Source: Tumidithrix elongata BACA0141
GTDB lineage: Bacteria > Cyanobacteriota > Cyanobacteriia > Pseudanabaenales > Pseudanabaenaceae
Reading direction: 5' to 3'
NCBI RefSeq assembly: GCF_036349135.1
Contig: NZ_JAZBJZ010000053.1
Location: 1 to 24,000 of the forward strand
DNA length: 24,000 nt
This document shows, piece after piece, positions 1,152 through 23,213 of this stretch. The notes below the pieces were generated by a model. It had not been told where the DNA came from. It worked only from the letters and a program-made list of their open reading frames with translations, and did no database searches. A program made the position numbers and the translations under genes. Every line of letters begins with the position of its first letter. Position 1 is the stretch's first letter.

Positions 1152-2360
1152 TTACAGCTTTTCCAACGCGATCGCTTCACCATCGCGCACCCAAGCAATT
1201 TGTTTGATCCCCCGCGATCGGGCATAGTCTCGTATAAGTTGTTCTGAGCGAAATGCTAACTCTAGCTCTACAGATGGGCGTTCCGCAGAGGTGCGTAACT
1301 GGTCTGCATGAACAAAAGCGAGATGCGTTGCCTGTGGGGTACAGGGAACCACTAAATAGTCTGTGGTTTGGGTGCTTTGAGGCAAGGTTGTCAGTAAAAC
1401 TTGGTGCAGATCTTCCAGATTCAAGCAAAAGCCGATACTGGGGTATGTGATTCCTTGGGGATGATAGACCCCTAATAAGCGATCGTAGCGCCCACCTTGA
1501 GCGATTACATGGTTCTCACAAACTACTTCAAACACAATGCCTGTGTAATAGTCAAACGTTTGAACTAAGCTCAGATCTAAAACCAGCGCATTTGCAAAAC
1601 CAGCAGATTCTAACAAATCGACCAAAGATTTAACGTGGTTGATTGCGTTGCTTAACTCTGATGCCCAGGCAAAGGTAGACAGCCTCGCTAAAACTGCTTG
1701 GGGACGACCGCGCAGGTCAATCAATTGCAAAGCCCTTTCTTTAACCGCATCTGGAATCTCTAGGTTCTCTAGCTGAATCCGATCTAAATGAGCTAAGCAG
1801 TGACGGATTTTTTCACGATATTGCGATGGGAATGTCTCAATTAGCGTCCCAGTTAGTCCAGCATCTCCTAGAATCACCTGCCAATTGGTCAGTTCAACCT
1901 GCTTGAGACACTCAGCTAAGAGCAACAAAATCTCACCGTCAGCCAGTAAGCCTGCGCCACCCAGTAACTCCACACCTGATTGGTAATACTCTTGCAGACT
2001 CGCCAATAATGGTGAGCCTGACTCACTTTTGCGACGAAAGACATTGGCACTGTAATAGAGCCTTTGGGGGCAATTTGTGACTTCTCTACTTAAACGGGCA
2101 GCATAGGCACGGGCGATCGATGCGGTGAGTTCGGGTCTGAGTCCCAAAACATCCATCCCACTACCATAGAGTTGAATTACGGACTCTGGCTGTACAGTAC
2201 CGCCTGCTGTCAATGTCTCTAGTCGTTCGAGGGTTGGTGTGATGATTCTCTGATAACCCCATGATTGAAATACGTTTTGCAAACGACTCTCAATCCACCG
2301 CTTTTGAGCGACATCTAGCGGCAATAAATCTTTGGCTCCGATCGGAAGCTGATGCACCAT
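1152..2360 (-). CDS. hisZ: ATP phosphoribosyltransferase regulatory subunit (HisRS-like paralog HisZ)
   Basis: 402-aa ORF with an ATG start. The N-terminus LPIGAKDLLPLDVAQKRWIESRLQNVFQSWGYQRIITPTLERLETL fits the HisZ pattern (LP.G.rDlLP ... WGY..i.tP.lE). It has a class-II aaRS-like core and no anticodon-binding tail. Confidence 0.8.
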   Translation of the reverse strand: MVHQLPIGAKDLLPLDVAQKRWIESRLQNVFQSWGYQRIITPTLERLETLTAGGTVQPESVIQLYGSGMDVLGLRPELTASIARAYAARLSREVTNCPQRLYYSANVFRRKSESGSPLLASLQEYYQSGVELLGGAGLLADGEILLLLAECLKQVELTNWQVILGDAGLTGTLIETFPSQYREKIRHCLAHLDRIQLENLEIPDAVKERALQLIDLRGRPQAVLARLSTFAWASELSNAINHVKSLVDLLESAGFANALVLDLSLVQTFDYYTGIVFEVVCENHVIAQGGRYDRLLGVYHPQGITYPSIGFCLNLEDLHQVLLTTLPQSTQTTDYLVVPCTPQATHLAFVHADQLRTSAERPSVELELAFRSEQLIRDYARSRGIKQIAWVRDGEAIALEKL

Positions 2361-2433: not shown

Positions 2434-3618
2434 TTACTTGCGATCTTTTCGATCGGGCGTACGCAGACCTAACAATCCAAAAAACCAACCTTTTGGGGCG
2501 TCGGCTTTTTTAGGCTCAGTTTTAGAGTTTGTCGTACTGCCTTTATTCAGGCTACTCATATACTGTAAGGCTAAAGGCTCTTTGGGGTTCAACTTCAGTG
2601 CTTGCTGAAAGCTAACCTTTGCCATGCTGGGTTGGTTGATATTTTTATAGACAACCCCTAACATTGCCATACATTTACTATCTTGGTTATTAAGCTGAAT
2701 GGCGATGCGAAGTTCCCGCAGTGCCTGCAACCATTGCTTTTGGCTCATATATTCTTCTGCCATAGCCACACGGGTCGCAAAACTTACATCAGACTGTGGA
2801 TTTAGCGGAAATTGTTCTCGCGACTGAATAAAAGTTTCGTCTTGATTGGATGCTGGTTGAGGGGGAGGACTGTAAGTTCGGCTCAGGTTTTGGTTATAGG
2901 TAGATTGTTTCGTCTGAGCGTTAGCTGGTGGTTTGGCTTGGGAAATCTGTGAAGTTGTTTTCTCTTTTGCAGGTGGCTTGATAGGGGAGGTTTGAACGAT
3001 CGTTTCATCGCCCGTTTGAAAGATTGTTTGATCGTCGTCGCTATTACTGCTATCACTAACTCGATTTTTAGGGTTGGCGTAGGTTAGAACGCTAGAAAAG
3101 TCTGGATCGCTGAACCGATAACCCTCTCTGTACAAAATATAAACTAGATTAAGCTCGCTCAACTGAGCAGTATATTCCAAGATTTTGTCTAGGGATTTGT
3201 ACTGACGATCGGCAACGGCAAAAACAAATTTTTCGTAGGCTGCTTCGTTGGGATTAAGCAACAATTGTTTCGCGATCGCAGATTTTATGCCAATATTACG
3301 AACTTTTTGCATGAGACGCTTTGCCAACAGTTTAAAGATGGCTCGGTAAGCTTCTCGTTCTCTTTCCTGCATGAGTATGTCATAGGCAGGATTCACCATT
3401 TTTGCTAGGTACTGCGTGGCAATTTCTTTTTCTTGCAGAGGGCGACCATAAACGTCAGGATGCAAAATCTTGGCGATGTCTATATACATATGGCGGATTA
3501 GGTTAACGTCCGCTGTAATGGGAACGCCCAAAGCCGCATAGTAGTCATGATTAAACTGACTAATCCCTCGATCAATCCGAATAACGATTGGCGAGCTTGC
3601 CAGTTGCCCTTCTGTCAT
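2434..3618 (-). CDS. J-domain / TPR protein, paralog 1 (atypical type-III J protein)
   Basis: J domain DYYAALGVP...AKILHPDVYG with HPD intact. Two TPR-like units follow (QKQWLQALRELRIAIQLN...MAKVSFQQALKLNPKEPLALQYM). The C-terminus is KGWFFGLLG plus a 10-aa basic tail. The ORF track starts at TTG 3624; the ATG at 3618 is preferred. Confidence 0.8.
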   Translation of the reverse strand: MTEGQLASSPIVIRIDRGISQFNHDYYAALGVPITADVNLIRHMYIDIAKILHPDVYGRPLQEKEIATQYLAKMVNPAYDILMQEREREAYRAIFKLLAKRLMQKVRNIGIKSAIAKQLLLNPNEAAYEKFVFAVADRQYKSLDKILEYTAQLSELNLVYILYREGYRFSDPDFSSVLTYANPKNRVSDSSNSDDDQTIFQTGDETIVQTSPIKPPAKEKTTSQISQAKPPANAQTKQSTYNQNLSRTYSPPPQPASNQDETFIQSREQFPLNPQSDVSFATRVAMAEEYMSQKQWLQALRELRIAIQLNNQDSKCMAMLGVVYKNINQPSMAKVSFQQALKLNPKEPLALQYMSSLNKGSTTNSKTEPKKADAPKGWFFGLLGLRTPDRKDRK

Positions 3619-3737
3619 GACCAAAAGCTGTTAACAACGATTTACATATCCTAACCCTAAAATTCTAGAAACAATAGCGTGATTTGTTTGAGGTATGTAC
3701 AGGTATTTTGTGTGATTTCAGGAATTTTTTCTACTAC

Positions 3738-4748
3738 TTACGAGCCGCCTCCAAGCCAACCAAAGAAACCACCTTTCTGTGGCTTTTGTGCTTTGGCGTC
3801 GGCGTCTTTGGCCAGGTTAAGTTGTTTGAGATATTGCAATGCTAGCGGCTCTTGTGGGTTAAGTTTAAGTGCCTGCTGAAAACTGACTTTTGCCATGCTG
3901 TTTAAGTTTTGCTTTACATACACCAGACCGAGCAAGGCGTGACACTTACTGGAGCTTGGGTCAAGCTGTAGAACAGCCCGCAATTCTTTGAGTGCAAAAG
4001 CCCATTGCTTTTGCTCGATATATTGTTCTGCTAGATGAATTTGGCTTTTCGCTTGACTGCTATTGCTACTTTGACTATTTCCTGATGCTTTCACTTCAGG
4101 CTCTGAAGAACGATAGGAAGAAGTAGGTGGCTTATAAGCGGAATGTTGGAAAGAATTGGTTTTAAGAACCGAACTATCGCTAGTAGAAGAGGTTGAGGTT
4201 TTGATCGAGCTACCTACAGTCGGACTGCTAACAGCAATGATTGGTGAAGCAAAGGGTTTATACCCAGATTGAGCTAAAACATAGACAAGGTTTAATTCGC
4301 TCAGTTGCCCAGTATAGTCTAGGGCTTTATCGAGAGATTGATACTGCATCTCAGCAAGCGATCGCACAGCTTTCTCATAGTTCAGATCGTTTGGGGCAGT
4401 AGCGAGCAAACGCGCAACATCTGACTGTGGTTCTAGCCCCTCACCTCTTTTCATCAACCGTTTGGCAATAAGCTTTAGTAGCGCTTGATATTCAACGCGT
4501 TCGCGCTCTTGCATGAGCGTGTTATAGGCAGGACTGACTAATTTAGCGAGGTAAGTGCAAGCGCGATCGCTTTCCTGTGGCGACTTTCCATAGACATCAG
4601 GATGTAAGATTTTGGCAATATTGAAATAACGCTTACGGATTTGAGAAGCCTCCGCATGAACGGGTAAACCCAGTACTGCATAGTGATCGCCTGAGCTATA
4701 TTTACCAATTCCTAAATTAACCTTAAAAGCCAGTGATTGGTTTACCAT
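3738..4748 (-). CDS. J-domain / TPR protein, paralog 2
   Basis: ATG start at 4748 with AGGAAG 9 nt upstream. It is collinear with paralogs 1 and 3: DHYAVLGLP...ILHPDVYG, LSELNLVYVL, MAKVSFQQALKLNPQEPLALQYL, and a C-terminal KGGFFGWLGGGS. Confidence 0.85.
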   Translation of the reverse strand: MVNQSLAFKVNLGIGKYSSGDHYAVLGLPVHAEASQIRKRYFNIAKILHPDVYGKSPQESDRACTYLAKLVSPAYNTLMQERERVEYQALLKLIAKRLMKRGEGLEPQSDVARLLATAPNDLNYEKAVRSLAEMQYQSLDKALDYTGQLSELNLVYVLAQSGYKPFASPIIAVSSPTVGSSIKTSTSSTSDSSVLKTNSFQHSAYKPPTSSYRSSEPEVKASGNSQSSNSSQAKSQIHLAEQYIEQKQWAFALKELRAVLQLDPSSSKCHALLGLVYVKQNLNSMAKVSFQQALKLNPQEPLALQYLKQLNLAKDADAKAQKPQKGGFFGWLGGGS

Positions 4749-5089
4749 GGCGAACTTCCTATCTATCTAAAAGTATTTTGAATATTTTGATGCGAGTAGA
4801 TATATCTTAAGTGAAGTTTCAGTTTATTTACACTAGATGAATCTATTACAGAGCTTTGTTAGTAAAATTGCAACCCCTATGGGTTATATAAAAGTTACCC
4901 ACAACCTGCTCACAAGTTACACAAAAATTACCGAAAATATGGATTCTAAGTGAAGCAATTCCCGAACCTGAAGATTCCTGCCGTTCTGTGGCGAAGAGGA
5001 AGAATAGCGGGAAATCTACGAGATGCATGCTTGAACCTCCTAGAATAGGTAGTGTCAGCGAAAGTCCATTGCTATGCGTTTAGTTGTTG

Positions 5090-6232
5090 CTACTGTCCAC
5101 CCAGCCAGCCAAAAAAACCACCTTTTTTATTTGAATCTTTCTTGTTTGTATTGGCATTTGCCTGCGTTGTAGATTGTGAAGATGAATCTTTGCTACCTAA
5201 CTGACTCATATACTTGAGCGCGATCGGTTCTTGCGGGTTTAACTTGAGTGCTTGCTGAAAACTAACTTTTGCCATGCCAGCAAGCTTTTGATTTACATAA
5301 ACTACACCCAAGAGCGCATGACATTTACTATTGTTACAATCAATTTGGATAGCACTACGAAGCTCTTTTAAAGCAGAAGACCATTCTTTTTGGGCAATAA
5401 AGAGTTCAGCTTGTCTAATATTCTGTTGAATTGAACTGCTTCCACTATTCGATGCTGCGTCTGCTGTATCTTGGCTAGCACGGTACTGCGAAGAATTAGA
5501 TTGAGATGCTCCAGTTGGTCGTGACTGGGTTGAACCTGATTGTGTTGACTTAGACTGAGTGAAGCTAGTCGTATTGCCTGTATTTGGGTAGCTTGCGTTT
5601 GTACCGCTAGTCTGACGATAGCTAGAGCCACTACTACTAGAACTAGAGGTGTAGTTTTTAGATGTGTAGCTAGGTGGCTGAATTGTCGTTGTGTCTCCAT
5701 TCATTGAAGAAGATTTAGCTACTTCTTCGGAAGTAAAGGGTTTGTACCCTTCTTGGAGTAAGACATAAACTAGGTTGAGTTCGCTGAGCTGGGCTGTATA
5801 TTCTAAGATTTTATCGAGCTGCTCGTATTGAATTTTGGCAATATCTTGTACTGCCTGCTCGTAACTAGAAACATTCGAGATCTGCAAGAGTTTTTTAGCA
5901 ACCTCAGACTGTGGAACAAACTTTTGGTTGCGTTTCATCAATCGCTTTGCTAGTAACTTGAGAATCGCTGAATATTCTGTGCGCTCGCGCTCTTGATTTA
6001 AAACGTTGTAGGCAGGGTTGACCAGTTTAGATAAATATTGACCTGCAATTACTTTTTCGTCGGGCGATCGCCCAAAAATGTCAGGATGTAGGTTTTTGGC
6101 GATGGTTAAATAGCGTTTACGCACCAACCCAGCGGTTGCCGTAACAGGGAGCCCCAAAACAGCATAGTAGTCATTAAAATCATATTGACCAATACCGCGA
6201 TCGATGCGGAATGTTTTGGGCTGTTGCACCAT
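5090..6232 (-). CDS. J-domain / TPR protein, paralog 3
   Basis: The track ORF begins at TTG 6283. The ATG at 6230-6232 gives MVQQPKTFRIDRGIGQY..., which aligns with the N-termini of the other two paralogs. HPD codons lie at 6080-6088. The C-terminus is KKGGFFGWLGGQ. Confidence 0.8.
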   Translation of the reverse strand: MVQQPKTFRIDRGIGQYDFNDYYAVLGLPVTATAGLVRKRYLTIAKNLHPDIFGRSPDEKVIAGQYLSKLVNPAYNVLNQERERTEYSAILKLLAKRLMKRNQKFVPQSEVAKKLLQISNVSSYEQAVQDIAKIQYEQLDKILEYTAQLSELNLVYVLLQEGYKPFTSEEVAKSSSMNGDTTTIQPPSYTSKNYTSSSSSSGSSYRQTSGTNASYPNTGNTTSFTQSKSTQSGSTQSRPTGASQSNSSQYRASQDTADAASNSGSSSIQQNIRQAELFIAQKEWSSALKELRSAIQIDCNNSKCHALLGVVYVNQKLAGMAKVSFQQALKLNPQEPIALKYMSQLGSKDSSSQSTTQANANTNKKDSNKKGGFFGWLGGQ

Positions 6233-6777
6233 CTGTTTCTGTGCCTTGAAATTTAGAACAAGATACTTTAACTTACCCGCCAAGGCTTAGGCTTCGATCT
6301 CAACACCTCAGAGATTTCACCAAGATTTGGAAACCACTAAATTATGTTGCGAGAAATTTTAGTTGGGCATATTTTTACCACATCCTACCGCAAATTCTAA
6401 TTTTATTAGTATTGTTAGCCACACAAACTTAACAGAGCTGCTTCACCATTGATGAATTTGGGTGATGAGTTTTGACAGGAGCAATGCTGTGCGATCGTAA
6501 GCAAAATTTAAGTAGAAGAAGAATGAAGGAATTGCAGAATATTTGTGAAGATCTAACTTGAGGTCTGACAGTACGATTTGAGAATAAGGATGCGTGGGTG
6601 TGAGGATACCTCCCTTAAATCATACAGAATGGAATATTGGCAAGTGGAAGAAAGAAAAGAGAAGCGAAGAACTGACGAAAACGGGAGGAATCATAATTAA
6701 GGGAAAGGCTTTTGCCTGACCTTTGACGAGATTGTGACATTTTGCCCATACTCTTCCTGACTATGAGAGCTTCACAT

Positions 6778-6791
6778 GTATAGAAAGCTAC
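6778..6791. promoter_or_regulatory. Candidate NtcA-type site (GTA-N8-TAC)
   Basis: The sequence tGTAtagaaagcTACt matches the core NtcA consensus GTAN8TAC. No correctly spaced TAN3T -10 box was found on either side. Confidence 0.2.
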
Positions 6792-6816
6792 TCAGTCTTA
6801 GGCAGATTTCGTTGCT

Positions 6817-6850
6817 CAAGAATACATAGACTTTTGACTATGCATTCTTG
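6817..6850 (+). other. Imperfect 15-position hairpin in the long spacer
   Basis: CAAGAATACATAGAC / TTTT / GACTATGCATTCTTG. 13 of 15 positions pair: 7 bp, a mismatch, 5 bp, a mismatch, then 1 bp. It is followed by TCTATTCATT, only a weak U-tract. Confidence 0.4.
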
Positions 6851-7103
6851 TCTATTCATTAGACTTCTTCCTTTCTCCATGTGCAATGAACAAAGTGTGG
6901 TAGGCGATTAATTCTGTTAGCAAGAATGGCACAATTTCTCAAACCCAAGAAATTGCAATGTTACTTATATTTAAGATTAGTTGTACTTACTAACAAAATA
7001 TTAAACCTCTTTAACAACTGTTTGTTCAGTTCTGTTTATGTGACATATAAATTATTTCATTGCCTCATTTTTGTACAAATAAACCTTCCTAAAATGCCAA
7101 TTT

Positions 7104-7117
7104 GTAGGTAAATCTAC
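7104..7117. promoter_or_regulatory. Candidate NtcA-type site (GTA-N8-TAC)
   Basis: The sequence tGTAggtaaatcTACt matches the core consensus. The nearest TAN3T (TAGGGT at 7130) is only 12 nt away, shorter than the usual ~22 nt. The site lies 640 nt upstream of rbcL. Confidence 0.2.
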
Positions 7118-7573
7118 TTAGAATTTCTTTAGGGTCTAGTAGACCTCAAATACATTAGTGTCCTTTCTGGGTAAAGATTTCAGGTGATTGGATATGTCGG
7201 ATCGCTCTATGGAATTTCGTCATAATCTCTTGTCAATTTAGCCAAAGAATTCGCAAAGATAACTAACGTAACGATCGCTCATTCTATGTTTAAATTAAAA
7301 GCATCGATCAGAATTTAATTGGTTCCCTTACTTACTAGGATCAACCTGTACAAGTTCTATCCATCGGCTCGGATTTAGAAAATCTGATTGGTTGGTTAAA
7401 ACAGACTGGTAAAATCAGACTTAAAATTTAGCAAATGGTTTTGTTTGCTCAAAATACAGTTCAAGATGCAGTAGTTCAAGACACAAGTATGGTGGTGAGT
7501 CAGGGTAGCAAATTGCAAAACTACTCAAATCACACGGCCTTATGGATGCCTTGCTGACCTTAGATAACTTGAA

Positions 7574-7589
7574 AGTCTTTTAAAAGACT
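7574..7589. promoter_or_regulatory. Perfect 16-nt palindrome AGTCTTTTAAAAGACT upstream of rbcL (candidate operator)
   Basis: Checked base by base. A shortened copy AGTCTTAAAAGCT lies at 7604-7616. The palindrome is centred about 175 nt upstream of the rbcL ATG. Confidence 0.3.
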
Positions 7590-7744
7590 ATAGAGATCTG
7601 CTTAGTCTTAAAAGCTGTCAGTGCAAATCTAAAAAAATTACACCAAACCAGAAATAAAAATCTAAATTCGACCTATCACTTGCTTGTGTCAGTGCTGCCT
7701 AAGGCTGCCCAAGTTTTACAAAGCCATTGTTTATCTAACCTCTT

Positions 7745-7750
7745 AAGGAG
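7745..7750 (+). promoter_or_regulatory. Shine-Dalgarno sequence of rbcL
   Basis: AAGGAG lies 6 nt upstream of the ATG at 7757. Confidence 0.7.
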
Positions 7751-7756
7751 ACCCAA

Positions 7757-9187
7757 ATGTCTTACTCGCAAACACAAACTCAGTCTAAATCTGGGTACCA
7801 AGCGGGCGTTCAAGATTACAAATTAAAGTACTATACTCCCGATTACACCCCCAGAGATACAGATATTCTGGCAGCATTCCGCTTCAGTCCTCAGCCAGGC
7901 GTGCCTCCTGAAGAAGCTGCAGCAGCTGTTGCCGCAGAATCTTCGACAGGTACTTGGACAACTGTATGGACAGATTTGTTGACCGACCTCGATCGCTACA
8001 AAGGTCGTTGCTATGATGTGGAATCCGTTCCCAACGAAGACAACCAATTTATCGCTTACATCGCTTATCCTCTCGACTTGTTCGAAGAAGGCTCTGTAAC
8101 CAACCTATTGACTTCATTGGTGGGTAACGTATTTGGTTTCAAAGCCCTACGTTCTTTGCGTTTAGAAGATATTCGCGTTCCCATTGCTTACCTCAAGACG
8201 TTCGAAGGACCTCCTCACGGGATTCAAGTTGAGCGCGACAAGTTAAACAAATACGGTCGTCCTCTCCTCGGTTGCACGATCAAACCAAAGCTCGGTTTGT
8301 CTGCAAAGAACTACGGTCGTGCCGTGTATGAGTGCTTGCGTGGCGGTCTAGACTTCACCAAAGACGACGAAAACATCAACTCTCAGCCTTTCATGCGCTG
8401 GCGCGATCGTTTCCTCTTCGTTCAAGAAGCGATCGAAAAGGCACAGGCTGAAACCGGTGAAGTTAAAGGTCACTACCTCAACGTTACCGCTCCTACCTGC
8501 GAACAAATGCTCGAACGTGCTGATTTTGCGAAAGAAATCGGCACACCGATCATCATGCATGACTTCCTAACCGGTGGTTTTACTGCTAACACAACCCTCT
8601 CGAAGTGGTGCCGTCGTAACGGTGTATTGCTTCACATTCACCGTGCTATGCACGCTGTTATCGACCGTCAAAAAACTCACGGGATTCACTTCCGCGTACT
8701 TGCTAAGTGCCTACGTATGTCTGGTGGCGACCACCTACACTCTGGTACGGTTGTGGGTAAACTCGAAGGTGAAAAGGAAATCACCATGGGCTTTGTTGAC
8801 CTCATGCGTGAAGATCATATCGAGCAAGATCGCTCTCGTGGTATCTACTTTACCCAAGACTGGGCTTCTATGCCTGGTACGATGCCTGTGGCTTCGGGTG
8901 GTATCCACGTATGGCACATGCCAGCACTCGTTGCCATCTTTGGTGATGACTCCTGCTTGCAGTTTGGTGGTGGCACACTAGGTCACCCATGGGGTGCAGC
9001 TCCTGGTGCAGCAGCTAACCGCGTTGCTTTGGAAGCTTGTATCCAAGCACGTAACGAAGGTCGTAACCTATGGCGTGAAGGTGGAGATGTTCTCCGCGAA
9101 GCTGGCCGTTGGTCACCTGAGTTGGCTGTAGCTCTAGAACTCTGGAAAGAGATCAAGTTTGAATTTGAAGCAATGGATACCCTCTAA
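7757..9187 (+). CDS. rbcL: RuBisCO large subunit, form IB
   Basis: 476-aa ORF with unmistakable RbcL sequence: [85 protein letters not shown] and [13 protein letters not shown]. All catalytic-site motifs are present. Confidence 0.99.
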
Positions 9188-9198
9188 TCGATGGGCTT

Positions 9199-9248
9199 AG
9201 GTTAGGGTCTGTTAGTATAAATACTTATTTTATCAATAGCCCTAACCT
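9199..9248 (+). other. Intercistronic stem-loop between rbcL and rbcX
   Basis: AGGTTAGGG (9199-9207) pairs perfectly with CCCTAACCT (9240-9248), and a G-U pair (9208:9239) is possible. The loop is AT-rich, about 30 nt. The structure starts 12 nt after the rbcL stop. Confidence 0.55.
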
Positions 9249-9271
9249 TTCACTCTTGGTCGATCAAGCCT

Positions 9272-9721
9272 ATGAATATCAAGCGCACTACCAAGTCCAC
9301 AGCGAGTATGCTCATAAACTATCTGACCTATGAAGCTGTGAAGACGGTTTCTGAGCAGTTGCAAGAAACAGATTTGTTAAAAGCTCACTGGTTCAACCAA
9401 TTCTCATCGCGCGAGAAAATTCAAAATGGCGATCTCTACATTCAAGAATTGCTTGAAGTTCACCAAGAGTTAGCTTTTCGAGTGATGACCGTTAGAGAAC
9501 ATCTCGCCAATGAAATTTTAGATTTCTTGCCTGAGATGACTCGAACGGGGATCCAACAATCAAATATGCAGCATCGGTGTCAGCACCTCGAACGCATCAT
9601 GAGCGTTCAGGCGACCCAGGGGTATGCGGAATGCGAGGATCTAGCAACTAATTTAGATAGCGATTCAACCAGCGATTCCAATGAAGAGTTAGATTCTGAT
9701 AGCGATCGCACAACCACCTAA
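9272..9721 (+). CDS. rbcX: RuBisCO assembly chaperone RbcX
   Basis: 149-aa ORF between rbcL and rbcS. It carries the conserved RbcX blocks YLTYEAVKTV, FRVMTVREHLANEILDFLPEMTRTGIQQSNMQHRCQHLERI. The C-terminal tail is rich in acidic, Ser and Asp residues. Confidence 0.92.
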   Translation: MNIKRTTKSTASMLINYLTYEAVKTVSEQLQETDLLKAHWFNQFSSREKIQNGDLYIQELLEVHQELAFRVMTVREHLANEILDFLPEMTRTGIQQSNMQHRCQHLERIMSVQATQGYAECEDLATNLDSDSTSDSNEELDSDSDRTTT

Positions 9722-9757
9722 TTTCGTTCTATTCATCACTGTAATCACGAGAAAATA

Positions 9758-10093
9758 ATGCAAACTTTACCTAAAGAGCGTCGTTACGAAACGCTTTCCT
9801 ACTTGCCACCCTTGAGCGATGCTCAAATCACTCGTCAGATCGAGTACTCCCTCAAGCAAGGTTTCTACCCAGCGATCGAGTTTAACGAAAACTCTGACCC
9901 TGCTGTCCACTACTGGACTCTGTGGAAGCTGCCTATGTTTAACGCCAAAACTCCTCAAGAAGTTTTAAGCGAAGTTCAAGCTTGCCGTTCTAGCTATCCT
10001 GGTAGCTACATCCGTGTTGTTGGTTTTGACAACATCAAGCAGTGCCAAGTATTGAGCTTTATCGTGCACAAGCCTAACACTCCTCGCTACTAA
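9758..10093 (+). CDS. rbcS: RuBisCO small subunit
   Basis: 111-aa ORF with RbcS blocks [30 protein letters not shown] and [14 protein letters not shown]. Confidence 0.97.
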
Positions 10094-11354: not shown

Positions 11355-11990
11355 ATGGTTCAATATACGCTCGCTCAAAGTCCTGAAGTTATTCTCACTG
11401 TTTCTGGTAGGGACTCTCTTAAAGCCCGCGAAAAAGCGATGGCGCAACTGATTGAACTCATGGATGAGGGAAAGTTAGACACAGATTTGGCTGATGGGTT
11501 TAGTCCTCAGCAATTTATTGAAGTAAAGGAGCCAGCCATGACAGTCACCAGCGATCAAGATGATGCCGTAACGCAAGCTGTACAGTTGTTAAACAACTTG
11601 GCTACGCTCAAAATTAAGGTACAAGAGCTTCGCACTGAAGCAATGAAGATCCGCGCCCAAGTCGATATTCTATTTAGTGATGCCCCCGTCAGCGAAGAGG
11701 AAATCAACAGCCTCAAAGAAGGCTTTAAGGTTTTAAAGAATTTTGCCCAATTTAATTTGCGTTATTTGGATGCGCGATCGCAGGCAGAGCAAGCTCGTAT
11801 CGTTCTCGACCAAGCACTAAATGGTTCTCTTGCCGAACCTGCACCCACCAAGGTAGAGCCCTCAAACCCTGAAGCGCTTCCTCAAGCAGAAGTAGAGCTA
11901 CCCGATGCTGTTGATGAGACACCCGCACAGTCCACTGACACTGAAGTTGAGACTGTCTCTGAAAAAGCAACTGGAAAAGCGAAAAAGTAG
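11355..11990 (+). CDS. Hypothetical protein with a helical central region and an acidic, Pro/Glu-rich C-terminus
   Basis: 211-aa ORF with an ATG start. The composition looks coding and no family was recognised. Confidence 0.55.
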   Translation: MVQYTLAQSPEVILTVSGRDSLKAREKAMAQLIELMDEGKLDTDLADGFSPQQFIEVKEPAMTVTSDQDDAVTQAVQLLNNLATLKIKVQELRTEAMKIRAQVDILFSDAPVSEEEINSLKEGFKVLKNFAQFNLRYLDARSQAEQARIVLDQALNGSLAEPAPTKVEPSNPEALPQAEVELPDAVDETPAQSTDTEVETVSEKATGKAKK

Positions 11991-12027: not shown

Positions 12028-13329
12028 CTAAAACATGGTTAGTTGCTGGGTAGGGATCTCCTGAGTTTTAGACAACTCGGGAGCATTCTCATCTGCCCCA
12101 TCCATTTCCCCGCCAACTTCTCCTAGAAGTTCTCTGGCTGCAATCAGTAGATCGACTTCGCAGTTTTTTAAATCTTCGCGCGTACTGAGGTAGGCTCTGA
12201 GTGCGGCGATCGGGTCGAGGGCTTCAACCGTGTTTAACTCAGCCGCACGGGTACGCGTTGATTGGTTAATGACTTCGGGGGCGATCGCGTAGTTATGGGC
12301 AGGGGCTAATGCTTGATGCAATTCCCGATCGTCAATTTGGCTCAACTGTTCGGGTTTGGCTTGGTAGATCAGCCGCACCACGGCATCGGTGATTTGACTG
12401 GTGGCGATCGCTTTCAGCAAAAGAGCTTGCGGTTTTTCGCTGTCAGTAACATCGATCTCTATCGTCCGAAATGGTCGTGCGGGTAAGGGACAAAACTCAA
12501 ACTTGGTTTCTCCCTTGTCTACTTCGAGCCAGCAATATCCTTTTTCTTCTTTTTCTTCGCCAAAGTCTACGCGCTCAATGCTGCCCGGATAAACCACTAA
12601 AGGATGTTGGCAAAGCACTTGATGGCGATGGACATGTCCTAGGGCAACATAGTCAAAGGCATCTTTTGCCAATAAAGAGAGCGGAATTGTAAATCCTTTT
12701 CCTGCTGCTAGAAACCGCTCTGAGCCATAGGTAGCCGAGTCAACCATCAGATGCGCCAAGAGAATTGTCGGTAGCTTGGGATCGAGTTGGCGAATTTCGG
12801 CTTCTAAAACTACCGTGAGGCGATCGATTAGTAACTTCCCAACTTCAGTCATTGATAACCCGTCTGTTTCTTGACGGGTGAGTAACGCCGATCGCGTCAA
12901 CCAAGGCAGCGTAATAATTTGAATTGCTCCTGCCTCTGTGGAGATGAGATGGGTCTCAATGCGATCGCCGACGATAAACCCCGGCACTGCCAAACTTCGA
13001 TAAATCGCCAGACTCGCGCCTCCCTGTCCTTGCGAATGCTGATCGTGGTTTCCCACCAACAACACTGTAGGAATGTTGGCATCGGCAAGACGCCGAAACT
13101 GCCTTGCGAATGCCTGCTGCACGAGCGGCGGCGGCGTAGCATCTGGAAAAGCATCCCCACCAAATAAGACCAAATCCGCAGGTTCGTGAATGGCGCGATC
13201 GATGCAGAGGGTTAAGGCTTTGACAAAATCCTCAAAGCGCGTATTTAGTCCCGTCTTGGGATTTACCCGCCCATGGGTCGTACTTCCCAGATGGATATCT
13301 GATAAATGCAGAACCTTGATCGCAGCCAT
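12028..13329 (-). CDS. sbcD: SbcD/Mre11-family metallophosphoesterase nuclease
   Basis: Calcineurin-like phosphoesterase motifs occur in the expected order: LHLSDIHLG, GGDAFPD, GNHD, and GHVH late in the protein. The 433-aa length is typical of SbcD. Confidence 0.8.
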   Translation of the reverse strand: MAAIKVLHLSDIHLGSTTHGRVNPKTGLNTRFEDFVKALTLCIDRAIHEPADLVLFGGDAFPDATPPPLVQQAFARQFRRLADANIPTVLLVGNHDQHSQGQGGASLAIYRSLAVPGFIVGDRIETHLISTEAGAIQIITLPWLTRSALLTRQETDGLSMTEVGKLLIDRLTVVLEAEIRQLDPKLPTILLAHLMVDSATYGSERFLAAGKGFTIPLSLLAKDAFDYVALGHVHRHQVLCQHPLVVYPGSIERVDFGEEKEEKGYCWLEVDKGETKFEFCPLPARPFRTIEIDVTDSEKPQALLLKAIATSQITDAVVRLIYQAKPEQLSQIDDRELHQALAPAHNYAIAPEVINQSTRTRAAELNTVEALDPIAALRAYLSTREDLKNCEVDLLIAARELLGEVGGEMDGADENAPELSKTQEIPTQQLTMF

Positions 13330-13370
13330 CGTTTATTTCCCAATTACGTACAATACCTCAATCCAAATTT

Positions 13371-13976
13371 TTAGAATGAGAGGGGTTGAAAAAGACTACT
13401 AATAGGGTACGAAAAACCAGGAATAACATCTTCACCATCCAGTGAATCTACCGATTTGAGCAAGCGATCGGGTTCTTGAGCGGAACGGTAGACCATCACG
13501 TAGTGCTGTGTTGGACTAACCACCCAAACTAGGCGCGAACCATTCTCAAAATATTCTCTGATTTTGTCATCAATTTCTTCAACGGTATTGCTAGGAGACA
13601 GCACTTCAACAGCAAGATCGGGTGCACCTTCTAAGAAACCAGAGGGTAGCTCTGTCATACCTTGTAGACGTGCTTTGGCAAAAAAAGCAATGTCAGGAGA
13701 GCGTTTATTACCATTTTTCATTTTGAACGCGGTGCTGGAATCAAACATGGCTCCAAGATATTGCAGTCGAACATACCCACCTAACAAAATCATCAGTGTG
13801 CTGCAAATATAGCCGTGTAATGCGCCAGAGTTTCCCATGTCAATCAATTCTCCGTTCACAATTTCATAGCGATGTCCATCATCGGGAAGTGCCATGAATG
13901 CTTCATCAGTCCAGACTTTTTTTTCGGGAACTTCAATTTCTAAGGTTTCTATGGATTGCTGAATTAGAGTAGACAT
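13371..13976 (-). CDS. Uma2-family (DUF820) PD-(D/E)xK endonuclease-like protein
   Basis: YEIVNGELI near the N-terminus. The core is PDIAFF...APDLAVEVLSPSN....E...K..EY...G....WVV.P, characteristic of the Uma2 family that is abundant in cyanobacteria. Confidence 0.8.
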   Translation of the reverse strand: MSTLIQQSIETLEIEVPEKKVWTDEAFMALPDDGHRYEIVNGELIDMGNSGALHGYICSTLMILLGGYVRLQYLGAMFDSSTAFKMKNGNKRSPDIAFFAKARLQGMTELPSGFLEGAPDLAVEVLSPSNTVEEIDDKIREYFENGSRLVWVVSPTQHYVMVYRSAQEPDRLLKSVDSLDGEDVIPGFSYPISSLFQPLSF

Positions 13977-21867: not shown

Positions 21868-22094
21868 GTTGTCTACCTCGTTTCCAGATGCCTATTCTAG
21901 CTAGATAAGGGCGATCGTGGTGTAAATGTAGTTGAAACTCTAAATACTGGAATACCTCTTGAGAAATCTGTGAAGTATCAGTCGGCTCGTGATTATGAGG
22001 AGGTTAATATCATTTATGCTTAATTTATCTATGTTTTTCCATTTATATATTTTTATCAATTTCCATAAATTTGACGGTCAAATCTAATAAAAAA

Positions 22095-23213
22095 ATGATT
22101 TCTATGACTACTTCTTCGGACGAACCTTTTGCAAAACAAAATTTAGCTTTAGATATAGATTCACCCACCAATTCCTTAGCCCAAATCTGGGCGAAAAAGT
22201 ACGTTCAAGACTTGTTAGTCGATCCTGCGACAGAAGAGGTTCCATCGGACACCTCAAACCTAGAGGTGGTTCTTTCTAGCCAAGGTAGAGCCGCAACGGT
22301 TGAAAAATTGCAACAGGCGCTACGTTTTACCAGTGCCCAAGCTTGGGCAAAAACCGAAGAACTTTTGGCGCAGCAAGTACAAAGGCATCGGATTAATCCA
22401 GAACTGATCGATCCTTGGCAAATTGCGGTAGATTCTCGGTTCCTGTTTGAAAAGGCGCTAGGTGTTTATACAGAGCAAGCTCCTACCCGTGCCGTTTCAC
22501 TCATGCTAGGCACTGTACATACATCTACTTCCCTAGAGAGCGCGACAGAATTGCCTGCCCCCAGCCGTCTTTCTGTCGCGATCGCGCAAGATGTTGGCAA
22601 GATTCGGCATAAGTACACCTCTGTCGATCCGAGAATTATTGGCTTTGTGAGTATGCAGTTTCACTATAGCGGTCAGTTACTTTTAGATTTGCTTTCTCCT
22701 GTGGAGCGAGCCGTTGTTGCCTCTTACTTTAAGGTGATTGACGATCATCTTTACATGCCTTTACAACGTTCCTATGAGGCTGCTGCTAACCAATCGGACT
22801 TTAATTCGGCCGCACTATTAGCTGTGCGGCAGTTATTGCCCATTAGTAGTGAAATCGCCAAAGCGGTGTGTGATAAAGTGGCTGCCATGTATCCAACCTA
22901 TCGCTGCTATAGTGGCGAACTAAGCTCCGCCGCCATTAAAATCTCTAGCCTCAGAGACACAGAAATGTTTCAGGTTTACCTTTGCCTCTGTGTGCTCGAA
23001 GGAAACTATGCCTCCTTGCAACAAGAGTTATTCCCTCTCTGTGTGATGCTATATCCCCCTTTGCAGGTTAGCTGGGAGTTAATCCGAAATATGTTGCGTT
23101 TGGTGGGACAAGAAATTAGCGATCGCCTTTCCGAAGAGCATATTAAAGAATTTAGACCCTATATTCGAGCTTTGTGGGAAATGTTTTCAAACGATGTGGT
23201 ATCTCAAGCTTGA
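22095..23213 (+). CDS. Hypothetical protein; the C-terminal half resembles a phycobiliprotein-type globin-like domain
   Basis: The ORF is open from TTG 22071, and the first ATGs are at 22095 and 22104. The C-terminal segment EIAKAVCDKVAAMYPTY...KISSLRDTEMFQVYLCLCVLEGNYASLQQEL aligns by eye with the phycocyanin helix B/E region. The domain call is tentative; the coding call is firmer. Confidence 0.6.
   Translation: MISMTTSSDEPFAKQNLALDIDSPTNSLAQIWAKKYVQDLLVDPATEEVPSDTSNLEVVLSSQGRAATVEKLQQALRFTSAQAWAKTEELLAQQVQRHRINPELIDPWQIAVDSRFLFEKALGVYTEQAPTRAVSLMLGTVHTSTSLESATELPAPSRLSVAIAQDVGKIRHKYTSVDPRIIGFVSMQFHYSGQLLLDLLSPVERAVVASYFKVIDDHLYMPLQRSYEAAANQSDFNSAALLAVRQLLPISSEIAKAVCDKVAAMYPTYRCYSGELSSAAIKISSLRDTEMFQVYLCLCVLEGNYASLQQELFPLCVMLYPPLQVSWELIRNMLRLVGQEISDRLSEEHIKEFRPYIRALWEMFSNDVVSQA

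Follow-up and report, generated by a model that had tools for sequence, protein, structure and literature searches.

The closest described systems to the genes considered here are the J-protein Sll1384 of Synechocystis and DnaJ3 of Nostoc punctiforme. Sll1384 has an N-terminal J domain, a variable low-confidence region and a C-terminal four-helix tetratricopeptide repeat (TPR) domain (PMC9948308); an architecture of this J-TPR type is likewise described in PMC3720927. Proteomics supplements for Synechocystis list Sll1384 as a DnaJ-like protein of 314 amino acids (aa) and 34.545 kDa, and sll1383 as SuhB. N. punctiforme DnaJ3 is a TPR domain-containing DnaJ homolog which has been equated with Sll1384 (PMC12288463, bioRxiv 2026.02.12.705559). 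We analysed a stretch of 24,000 nucleotides (nt) from Tumidithrix elongata BACA0141 (contig NZ_JAZBJZ010000053.1, positions 1 to 24,000; the window), which carries three J-TPR genes in tandem. These genes are very probably lineage-specific co-orthologs of the class C J-protein Sll1384/DnaJ3. The array had been taken as an uncharacterised architecture in an earlier, sequence-only reading of the same DNA; it belongs instead to this known family.

Nostoc DnaJ3 shows static bipolar localisation at type IV pilus motors, interacts with DnaK1 and acts in hormogonium polysaccharide secretion (McDonald et al. 2022, PMC9239167); its static polar localisation is also reported in PMC11407516. The Nostoc and Synechocystis orthologs both interact with DnaK1 by two-hybrid (PMC9239167), and the phenotypes of J-TPR deletions concern motility and polysaccharide secretion (PMC9239167, PMC11407516, bioRxiv 2026.02.12.705559). 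The name DnaJ3 is used for two different Synechocystis proteins: in papers from the Schneider laboratory on thylakoids and DnaK3 it denotes Sll1933 (PMC7281324), while in the type IV pilus papers it denotes Sll1384. Annotation transfer could be misled by this double use.

The three genes lie on the minus strand in the same orientation, with the following coordinates.

2434..3618, minus strand: copy 1 (J1), 394 aa from ATG; the open reading frame (ORF) reaches a TTG at 3624; paralog of clade B (see below).
3738..4748, minus strand: copy 2 (J2), 336 aa.
5090..6232, minus strand: copy 3 (J3), 380 aa from ATG; the ORF reaches a TTG at 6283.

The maximal ORFs (2434-3624, 3738-4748 and 5090-6283, the first and last from TTG) contain no internal stops, and the ORF calls agree with the sequence-only reading that all three are intact. 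The ATG codons at 3618 (copy 1) and 6232 (copy 3), already used in that reading, are the likely starts, as they are consistent with the orthologs of the sister species T. helvetica; the copy 3 start also matches an NCBI protein of 380 aa (P0016). Copy 2 is 100% identical to an NCBI protein of Tumidithrix elongata RA019 (Pseudanabaenaceae; P0001). The spacer between copies 3 and 2 is 341 nt. Between copies 2 and 1 the spacer measures 119 nt when counted from the ATG (3618); the 113 nt previously given presupposes the TTG (3624) as the start of copy 1.

The three proteins are collinear, with pairwise identities of 44-52%. All share one layout: an N-terminal motif, a J domain with its HPD motif, a helical module of ~85 aa, a linker, two TPRs with a capping helix, and a basic/aromatic tail. 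The Pfam DnaJ model (PF00226) scores 37.2, 43.1 and 41.2 bits for copies 1, 2 and 3 against a gathering cut-off of 27.8. HPD is intact in every copy, and TPR_2 or TPR_11 exceeds its Pfam cut-off in all three. Neither the zinc finger (PF00684) nor the DnaJ C-terminal domain (PF01556) gave a match in the three copies at E values up to 1. With a J domain and HPD but no adjacent Gly/Phe-rich (G/F) region, zinc finger or DnaJ_C, the proteins are class C (type III) J-proteins. An AlphaFold2 model of copy 2, built on an 80-sequence alignment, has a mean pLDDT (predicted local distance difference test) of 77. It places the J domain at about residues 18-81, the helical module at 82-165 (pLDDT ~90), a linker at 166-225 (pLDDT <50) and five helices at 226-319 (pLDDT ~95), followed by a low-confidence tail. 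The domains map to the window as follows.

4506..4697, minus strand: J domain of copy 2, residues 18-81, HPD at 49-51 (PF00226).
3364-3552 and 5990-6181, minus strand: J domains of copies 1 and 3, equivalents by alignment.
4254..4505, minus strand: helical module of copy 2, residues 82-165, with the LSELNLVY motif; family-specific.
3100-3363 and 5738-5989, minus strand: helical modules of copies 1 and 3, equivalents by alignment.
4074..4253, minus strand: disordered linker of copy 2, 60 aa, rich in S/T/N/Q/P.
2794-3099 (102 aa) and 5444-5737 (98 aa), minus strand: disordered linkers of copies 1 and 3, equivalents by alignment.
3792..4073, minus strand: TPR domain of copy 2, residues 226-319, two repeats and a capping helix (Pfam, AlphaFold2, Foldseek, PDB profile).
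2509-2793 and 5141-5443, minus strand: TPR domains of copies 1 and 3, equivalents by alignment.
3741..3791, minus strand: Lys-rich tail of copy 2 with a G/F/W/L motif, KGGFFGWLGGGS.
2437-2508 and 5093-5140, minus strand: tails of copy 1, KGWFFGLLGLRTPDRKDRK, and copy 3, KKGGFFGWLGGQ.

The Pfam scores and the AlphaFold2 layout uphold the order of J domain with HPD, helical module, linker and TPRs that the sequence-only reading proposed, as well as its two TPR units, to which a capping helix is now added; the absence of the G/F region, zinc finger and C-terminal domain of type I/II DnaJ also stands, given the lack of Pfam matches. Alignment of the three proteins confirms that the linkers cannot be aligned between copies, but their supposed length of 70-110 aa has to be revised to 102, 60 and 98 aa in copies 1, 2 and 3. 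As mapped by this alignment, S, T, N, Q, P, G and A make up 64-79% of linker residues. PDB profile and Foldseek matches are confined to the J and TPR domains. The J domain matches those of DNAJA3 and DnaJ in PDB profiles (E down to 7e-11), and the whole copy 2 model retrieves only generic TPR domains in Foldseek (best E 5.5e-3). The helical module has no relative in Pfam, among PDB sequences or among PDB folds; Foldseek with the module alone gave a best E of 1.8. The TPR domain carries a near-invariant MAKVSFQQALKLNP motif.

Two other groups of J-proteins resemble this layout in part. Eukaryotic TPR-J proteins (DNAJC3/P58IPK, DNAJC7 and plant DJC31/DJC62) also combine TPRs with a J domain and so couple client binding to Hsp70. 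However, their order is reversed, with N-terminal TPRs and a C-terminal J domain; they have many more TPRs and show no sequence relationship to the J-TPR type (PMC3720927), and PDB entry 2y4t gave a single weak match restricted to the J domain. HscB, like the array proteins, has an all-helical module directly after its J domain, but lacks the TPR domain, linker and tail. An HscB-like identity was rejected: the NCBIfam HscB models score 15-26 bits against cut-offs of 47-198 (for the best score, 26 bits, the cut-off is 189), and no PDB fold matches the helical module significantly.

Homologs are widespread. An exhaustive profile search returned 189 clusters (at 50% identity) at E < 1e-30 and 1572 at E < 1e-10. 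In a second search the broad family proved pan-cyanobacterial, with a typical length of 305-330 aa and members in Nostoc, Calothrix, Scytonema, Chlorogloeopsis, Fischerella, Kamptonema, Oscillatoria, Gloeocapsa, Chroococcidiopsis, Leptolyngbya and Trichocoleus. In hhalign, the profiles of the Pseudanabaenales and of the broad family align over their full extent, N-terminal motif and tail included (307 columns, probability 100%, E 4.5e-83). In BLASTP, copy 2 is 35% identical (E 4e-56) to the Gloeocapsa PCC 7428 member that lies in the gene cluster discussed next. Three database labels among the homologs do not fit their sequences. Two contigs labelled Rhizobium sp. Q54 (L003, CALRKB020000066.1) and Methylacidiphilales bacterium (P0412) carry cyanobacterial J-TPR genes, in the first case together with hisZ, and are probably mis-binned contigs of metagenome-assembled genomes; a protein labelled Waterburya sp. 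(P0372) clusters with Coleofasciculaceae and Microcoleus.

The link to Sll1384 and to N. punctiforme DnaJ3 was tested by synteny, for which hisZ is the key neighbour.

1152..2360, minus strand: hisZ, ATP phosphoribosyltransferase regulatory subunit (NCBIfam NF008940, 535 bits against a cut-off of 450).

A published cyanobacterial gene cluster, cluster c, consists of fed2, nuc, suhB, dnaJ and hisZ, followed by fed8; fed2 is sll1382 (PMC4284462). Since sll1382 is fed2 and sll1383 is SuhB, the consecutive locus tags suggest that sll1384 is the dnaJ of cluster c. The J-TPR genes of Nostoc sp. KVJ3, Gloeocapsa PCC 7428 and Kamptonema formosum stand in the order Fer2, SNase, Inositol_P, J-TPR, hisZ, Fer4 and ABC. 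At these loci (Nostoc L080:8001-10165, Gloeocapsa L081:8001-10153, Kamptonema L083:8001-10186) the stop codon of the J-TPR gene and the start of hisZ share 1 nt, which suggests translational coupling. Copy 1 of the array lies 73 nt upstream of hisZ. A scan with one genome per species gave 79 loci, all of them in Pseudanabaenales, with flanks of up to 10 kb (many contigs were shorter). In T. helvetica and at 13 further Pseudanabaenales loci a family member is followed by hisZ after ~70 nt; with the window there are 15 such cases, and they come from several paralog clades. The fed2, nuc and suhB part of cluster c is absent from the window and from all Pseudanabaenales loci examined. By lying directly upstream of hisZ, the array occupies the dnaJ slot of cluster c; its genes are consequently positional co-orthologs of Sll1384.

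Comparison with the two described proteins is consistent with this assignment. Like the array proteins, Sll1384 has a J domain with HPD, a variable region, a C-terminal TPR domain and a similar size, and its gene is a dnaJ directly upstream of hisZ. It differs in its setting: Sll1384, for which no more than one copy was seen, belongs to the full fed2-nuc-suhB-dnaJ-hisZ cluster, while the window has three tandem copies, retains only hisZ, and carries rbcLXS in the place of suhB. Nostoc DnaJ3 is also a TPR-containing J protein, and Nostoc species carry members of the window family; unlike that of the Tumidithrix paralogs, its role was defined by experiment.

The duplicates are old. DNA identity between paralogs in conserved blocks is just 63-72%, with no long identical runs; this rules out recent gene conversion among the copies. 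Synonymous divergence (dS) between paralogs is saturated, while the ratio of nonsynonymous to synonymous substitution (dN/dS) against the T. helvetica ortholog is 0.10, 0.11 and 0.09 for copies 1, 2 and 3. Together these values show that all three copies are old and under purifying selection, and with the intact ORFs they bear out the earlier view of anciently duplicated, maintained genes.

The Pseudanabaenales have expanded the family into at least four old paralog clades, mostly at dispersed sites. In a neighbour-joining (NJ) tree with 100 bootstrap replicates and 12 broad-family outgroup sequences, the Pseudanabaenales copies group apart from the outgroup (100/100). Copy 1 falls within clade B+D (100/100), copy 2 forms a group with one metagenomic bin and the T. 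helvetica ortholog (100), and copy 3 joins the main Pseudanabaena clade, A3 (77/100); a short clade C is also supported (100). The clades have their own C-terminal tails (KKGGFFGWLGGG; GWLSNLLGW...D/K; WLSHLLKWAFSKKS; KKGGLFGWGKK) and their own neighbours, namely QueG directly downstream in A3, REC-GGDEF downstream in C and BlaI/BlaR1-like genes upstream in B. Single Pseudanabaena genomes have three or four copies at dispersed sites. Among the 79 loci one (L032) has two adjacent copies, and a three-gene array is found elsewhere only in T. helvetica PCC 7403. The adjacency of hisZ in several clades, together with the tandems of Tumidithrix and L032, suggests an initial tandem duplication upstream of hisZ and a later dispersal.

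Two of the clade neighbourhoods show additional features. At 22 Pseudanabaena loci of clade A3 (L004-L030, e.g. L021:11054-12016), QueG follows the copy 3 ortholog within a few nt, and is followed in turn by a pentapeptide-repeat gene and by genes that resemble LarC on inspection of sequence (not profile-checked). The set of copy 3 ortholog and QueG looks like an operon-like arrangement; it is absent in Tumidithrix. The clade C paralog (~297 aa, ending in KKGGLFGWGKK; L046-L079, e.g. L059:10942-11955) has a response-regulator/GGDEF gene ~64 nt downstream at 12 loci. This neighbourhood hints at a link to cyclic di-GMP signalling.

The spacer between copies 3 and 2 contains a hairpin that resembles a terminator, at 4871-4886 on the minus strand (TAACCCATAGGGGTTG and then a T-rich tract); the position of this hairpin suggests that the copies are transcribed separately. 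Promoter and terminator scans performed no better than on shuffled sequence, and this hairpin was the only terminator-like one that they showed. An Rfam search of the window gave no matches. Matches to the J-box of Nostoc SigJ (GGGAATACT) occur at chance level, and none of the three genes has one upstream.

The family as a whole has a conserved tail. The broad-family consensus ends in GGLFGGLFGGKKK, as against KKGGFFGWLGG or GWFFGLLGL... in the window. The ending GGFFGWLGG, read earlier as common to all copies, does not apply to copy 1, which ends in KGWFFGLLGLRTPDRKDRK. Within the C-terminal 22 residues, 39% of 586 family members show a pattern of paired hydrophobic residues (phi-phi-x-x-phi-phi), compared with 0.5% of shuffled tails. 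The C-terminal end of MinD is a membrane-targeting sequence; in E. coli it reads KKGFLKRLFGG in the genome and also has Lys flanks and paired hydrophobic residues. This likeness is one of composition and spacing, not of homology, and the J-TPR tails are far richer in glycine. The tail motif also fits the general pattern of DnaK substrates, a hydrophobic core with basic flanks. By analogy, the tail may, with low confidence, most likely be a MinD-like membrane anchor; alternatively, it could dock in the DnaK substrate site. Anchoring at the membrane or pole by the tail would be in keeping with the static polar position reported for Nostoc DnaJ3.

From these parts a working mechanism can be proposed. 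The HPD J domain would dock on a DnaK and trigger its ATPase, as J domains do in general. The C-terminal TPR domain, with its nearly invariant MAKVSFQQALKLNP face, probably binds a conserved partner or client, and the disordered linker, whose length is paralog-specific, would act as a flexible tether that gives reach. The Lys-flanked aromatic/Gly tail may anchor the protein, most likely at a membrane, unless it occupies the substrate site of DnaK. The ancestral gene would have stood in the fed2-nuc-suhB-dnaJ-hisZ cluster and been duplicated in the Pseudanabaenales, probably in tandem upstream of hisZ, into at least four clades; Tumidithrix would have kept three copies in tandem while Pseudanabaena scattered its copies over the genome. 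The paralogs most likely send one Hsp70 to different sites or clients. The idea of specialised DnaK-targeting adaptors, put forward in the sequence-only reading, agrees with the published data on the orthologous family, namely on DnaK1 (for DnaJ3) and on DnaK2 and RbcL (for Sll1384).

The array is flanked on its other side by the RuBisCO genes.

7757..10093, plus strand: rbcL-rbcX-rbcS (Pfam), with rbcL at 7757-9187; divergent from copy 3 across 1524 nt.

Pfam identifies rbcL, rbcX and rbcS, and the divergent arrangement noted before is correct. The region between copy 3 and rbcL (6233-7756) is AT-rich (38-39% GC) and has no ORF longer than 61 aa, no Rfam match and no promoter above chance; it presumably holds the rbcL promoter and leader. 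RbcX (9272-9721, 149 aa) has a C-terminal extension of ~35 Asp/Ser/Glu-rich residues (…DSDSTSDSNEELDSDSDRTTT) beyond the 111-position Pfam RbcX model.

This adjacency had been taken as a clue that one or more of the paralogs are dedicated DnaK adaptors for nascent RbcL, their position reflecting a coupling to RuBisCO or carboxysome proteostasis. The biochemistry gives the idea some substance. Alone among the Synechocystis DnaJs, Sll1384 bound unfolded RbcL; together with DnaK2 it raised the solubility and assembly of RbcL in E. coli, and RuBisCO activity was lower in the sll1384 deletion mutant (PMC9948308). In connection with low CO2, a phosphorylation of Sll1384 that depends on SpkC has been discussed (PMC11863333), and the rbcLXS adjacency is common to two Tumidithrix species. 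The genomic evidence points the other way. In the flanks covered at the 79 loci (up to 10 kb, less on many contigs), rbcL lies near a family member only in T. helvetica (PCC 7403), with rbcLXS, and there is no rbcL within 8 kb of the J-TPR gene at the Nostoc, Gloeocapsa and Kamptonema loci; the recurrent linkage to rbcL seen as the mark of an accessory chaperone of the rbcX/raf1 type was thus not found. Copy 3 and rbcL diverge across 1.5 kb and therefore do not form an operon, and the 6.7-kb contig that carries the copy 3 ortholog of the nearest outgroup bin (L005) contains no rbcL. The sequence-only reading had itself named two outcomes that would count against the idea: homologs elsewhere lying away from rbcL, which is largely what is seen (78 of the 79 loci have no rbcL match in these flanks), and a characterised unrelated role, which largely exists in the form of motility and polysaccharide secretion, yet one study does report RbcL binding. 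That study is the only source of the RbcL link, and the main phenotype of the sll1384 mutant is a motility defect (PMC9948308, bioRxiv 2026.02.12.705559). Being limited to one genus, the adjacency says little about function: the placement of rbcLXS next to the array is a genus-specific juxtaposition and probably not a functional unit, and the conserved neighbour is hisZ. A RuBisCO-dedicated role is therefore unlikely, and is kept as a minority alternative because of the Sll1384 biochemistry (PMC9948308) rather than gene position. It is quite unlikely that the paralogs have divided pilus/polysaccharide and RbcL roles among themselves, with 5090-6232 encoding a RuBisCO-dedicated DnaK adaptor and the tails directing each protein to other sites.

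The conserved neighbourhood raises another explanation, namely that the J-TPR protein serves the products of its neighbours, either in histidine biosynthesis (HisZ/HisG assembly) or in ferredoxin-linked redox processes. The order fed2-nuc-suhB-dnaJ-hisZ-fed8 is kept across distant orders, with the 1-nt overlap of dnaJ and hisZ; the Pseudanabaenales have retained hisZ adjacency despite losing the remaining cluster; and Fed7 interacts with Sll1384 by two-hybrid (PMC4284462). However, no experiment ties the family to histidine metabolism, its deletion phenotypes lie in motility and polysaccharide secretion, and most Pseudanabaena paralogs stand away from hisZ beside new neighbours (QueG, REC-GGDEF, BlaI/BlaR1). 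Conserved order may also persist without shared function, and this explanation is very improbable. The view that the proteins are general-purpose DnaJ or CbpA-like co-chaperones, in three merely redundant copies, is hardly credible. It would fit the JGI label of many homologs (curved DNA-binding protein CbpA) and the match of the J region to DnaJ and CbpA models. These matches cover the J domain only, at 19-25 bits against 403 for NCBIfam CbpA (NF007618) and 29-35 against 377 for DnaJ_bact (TIGR02349); the G/F region, zinc finger and DnaJ C-terminal domain are missing, and each paralog lineage has been kept separately with its own tail and neighbourhood. At domain level the model cut-offs refute a CbpA-like identity.

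Several points weigh against the view of the array as Sll1384/DnaJ3 co-orthologs that arose in tandem and act as Hsp70 adaptors. The identity with Sll1384 and DnaJ3 rests on architecture, length, family homology and synteny rather than on direct alignment, and no Synechocystis or N. punctiforme entry was among the matches listed in the family database searches. A metagenomic protein from a JGI-only cluster has the 34.545 kDa mass of Sll1384; the match was judged a coincidence. The family members examined have neither dnaK1 or grpE nor any type IV pilus gene nearby, so a motility role gains no support from synteny either. The published Sll1384-RbcL interaction means that the adjacency of rbcL should not be dismissed outright. 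Any role for the tail, the N-terminal motif or the helical module is tentative. NJ support inside clade A is weak, and the basis for an ancestral tandem consists of the Tumidithrix arrays, the single locus with two copies (L032) and the occurrence of hisZ beside members of several clades.

Elsewhere in the window, a metallophosphoesterase gene with an SbcD/Mre11-like appearance (Pfam Metallophos only) adjoins a Uma2-family endonuclease gene at 12028-13976. An ORF of 211 aa (11355-11990) has no Pfam match, and a further ORF of 380 aa lies at 22071-23213.

The array is best described as a set of additional genes for a known Hsp70 co-chaperone, a family with hisZ as its conserved neighbour, and not as an unknown architecture tied to RuBisCO. 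A gene that is single-copy at each locus examined in three other orders has given rise to at least four old lineages in the Pseudanabaenales; this lineage-specific expansion of paralogs has not been described before, and its tandem state survives in Tumidithrix. Because the paralogs differ in linker length, tail and neighbourhood, they offer a natural system for studying how the non-J parts of a co-chaperone direct Hsp70. The family also has conserved features that have not been described, namely the N-terminal motif, the ~85-aa helical module without a structural relative and the MinD-like tail, and these could account for the polar localisation of Nostoc DnaJ3.

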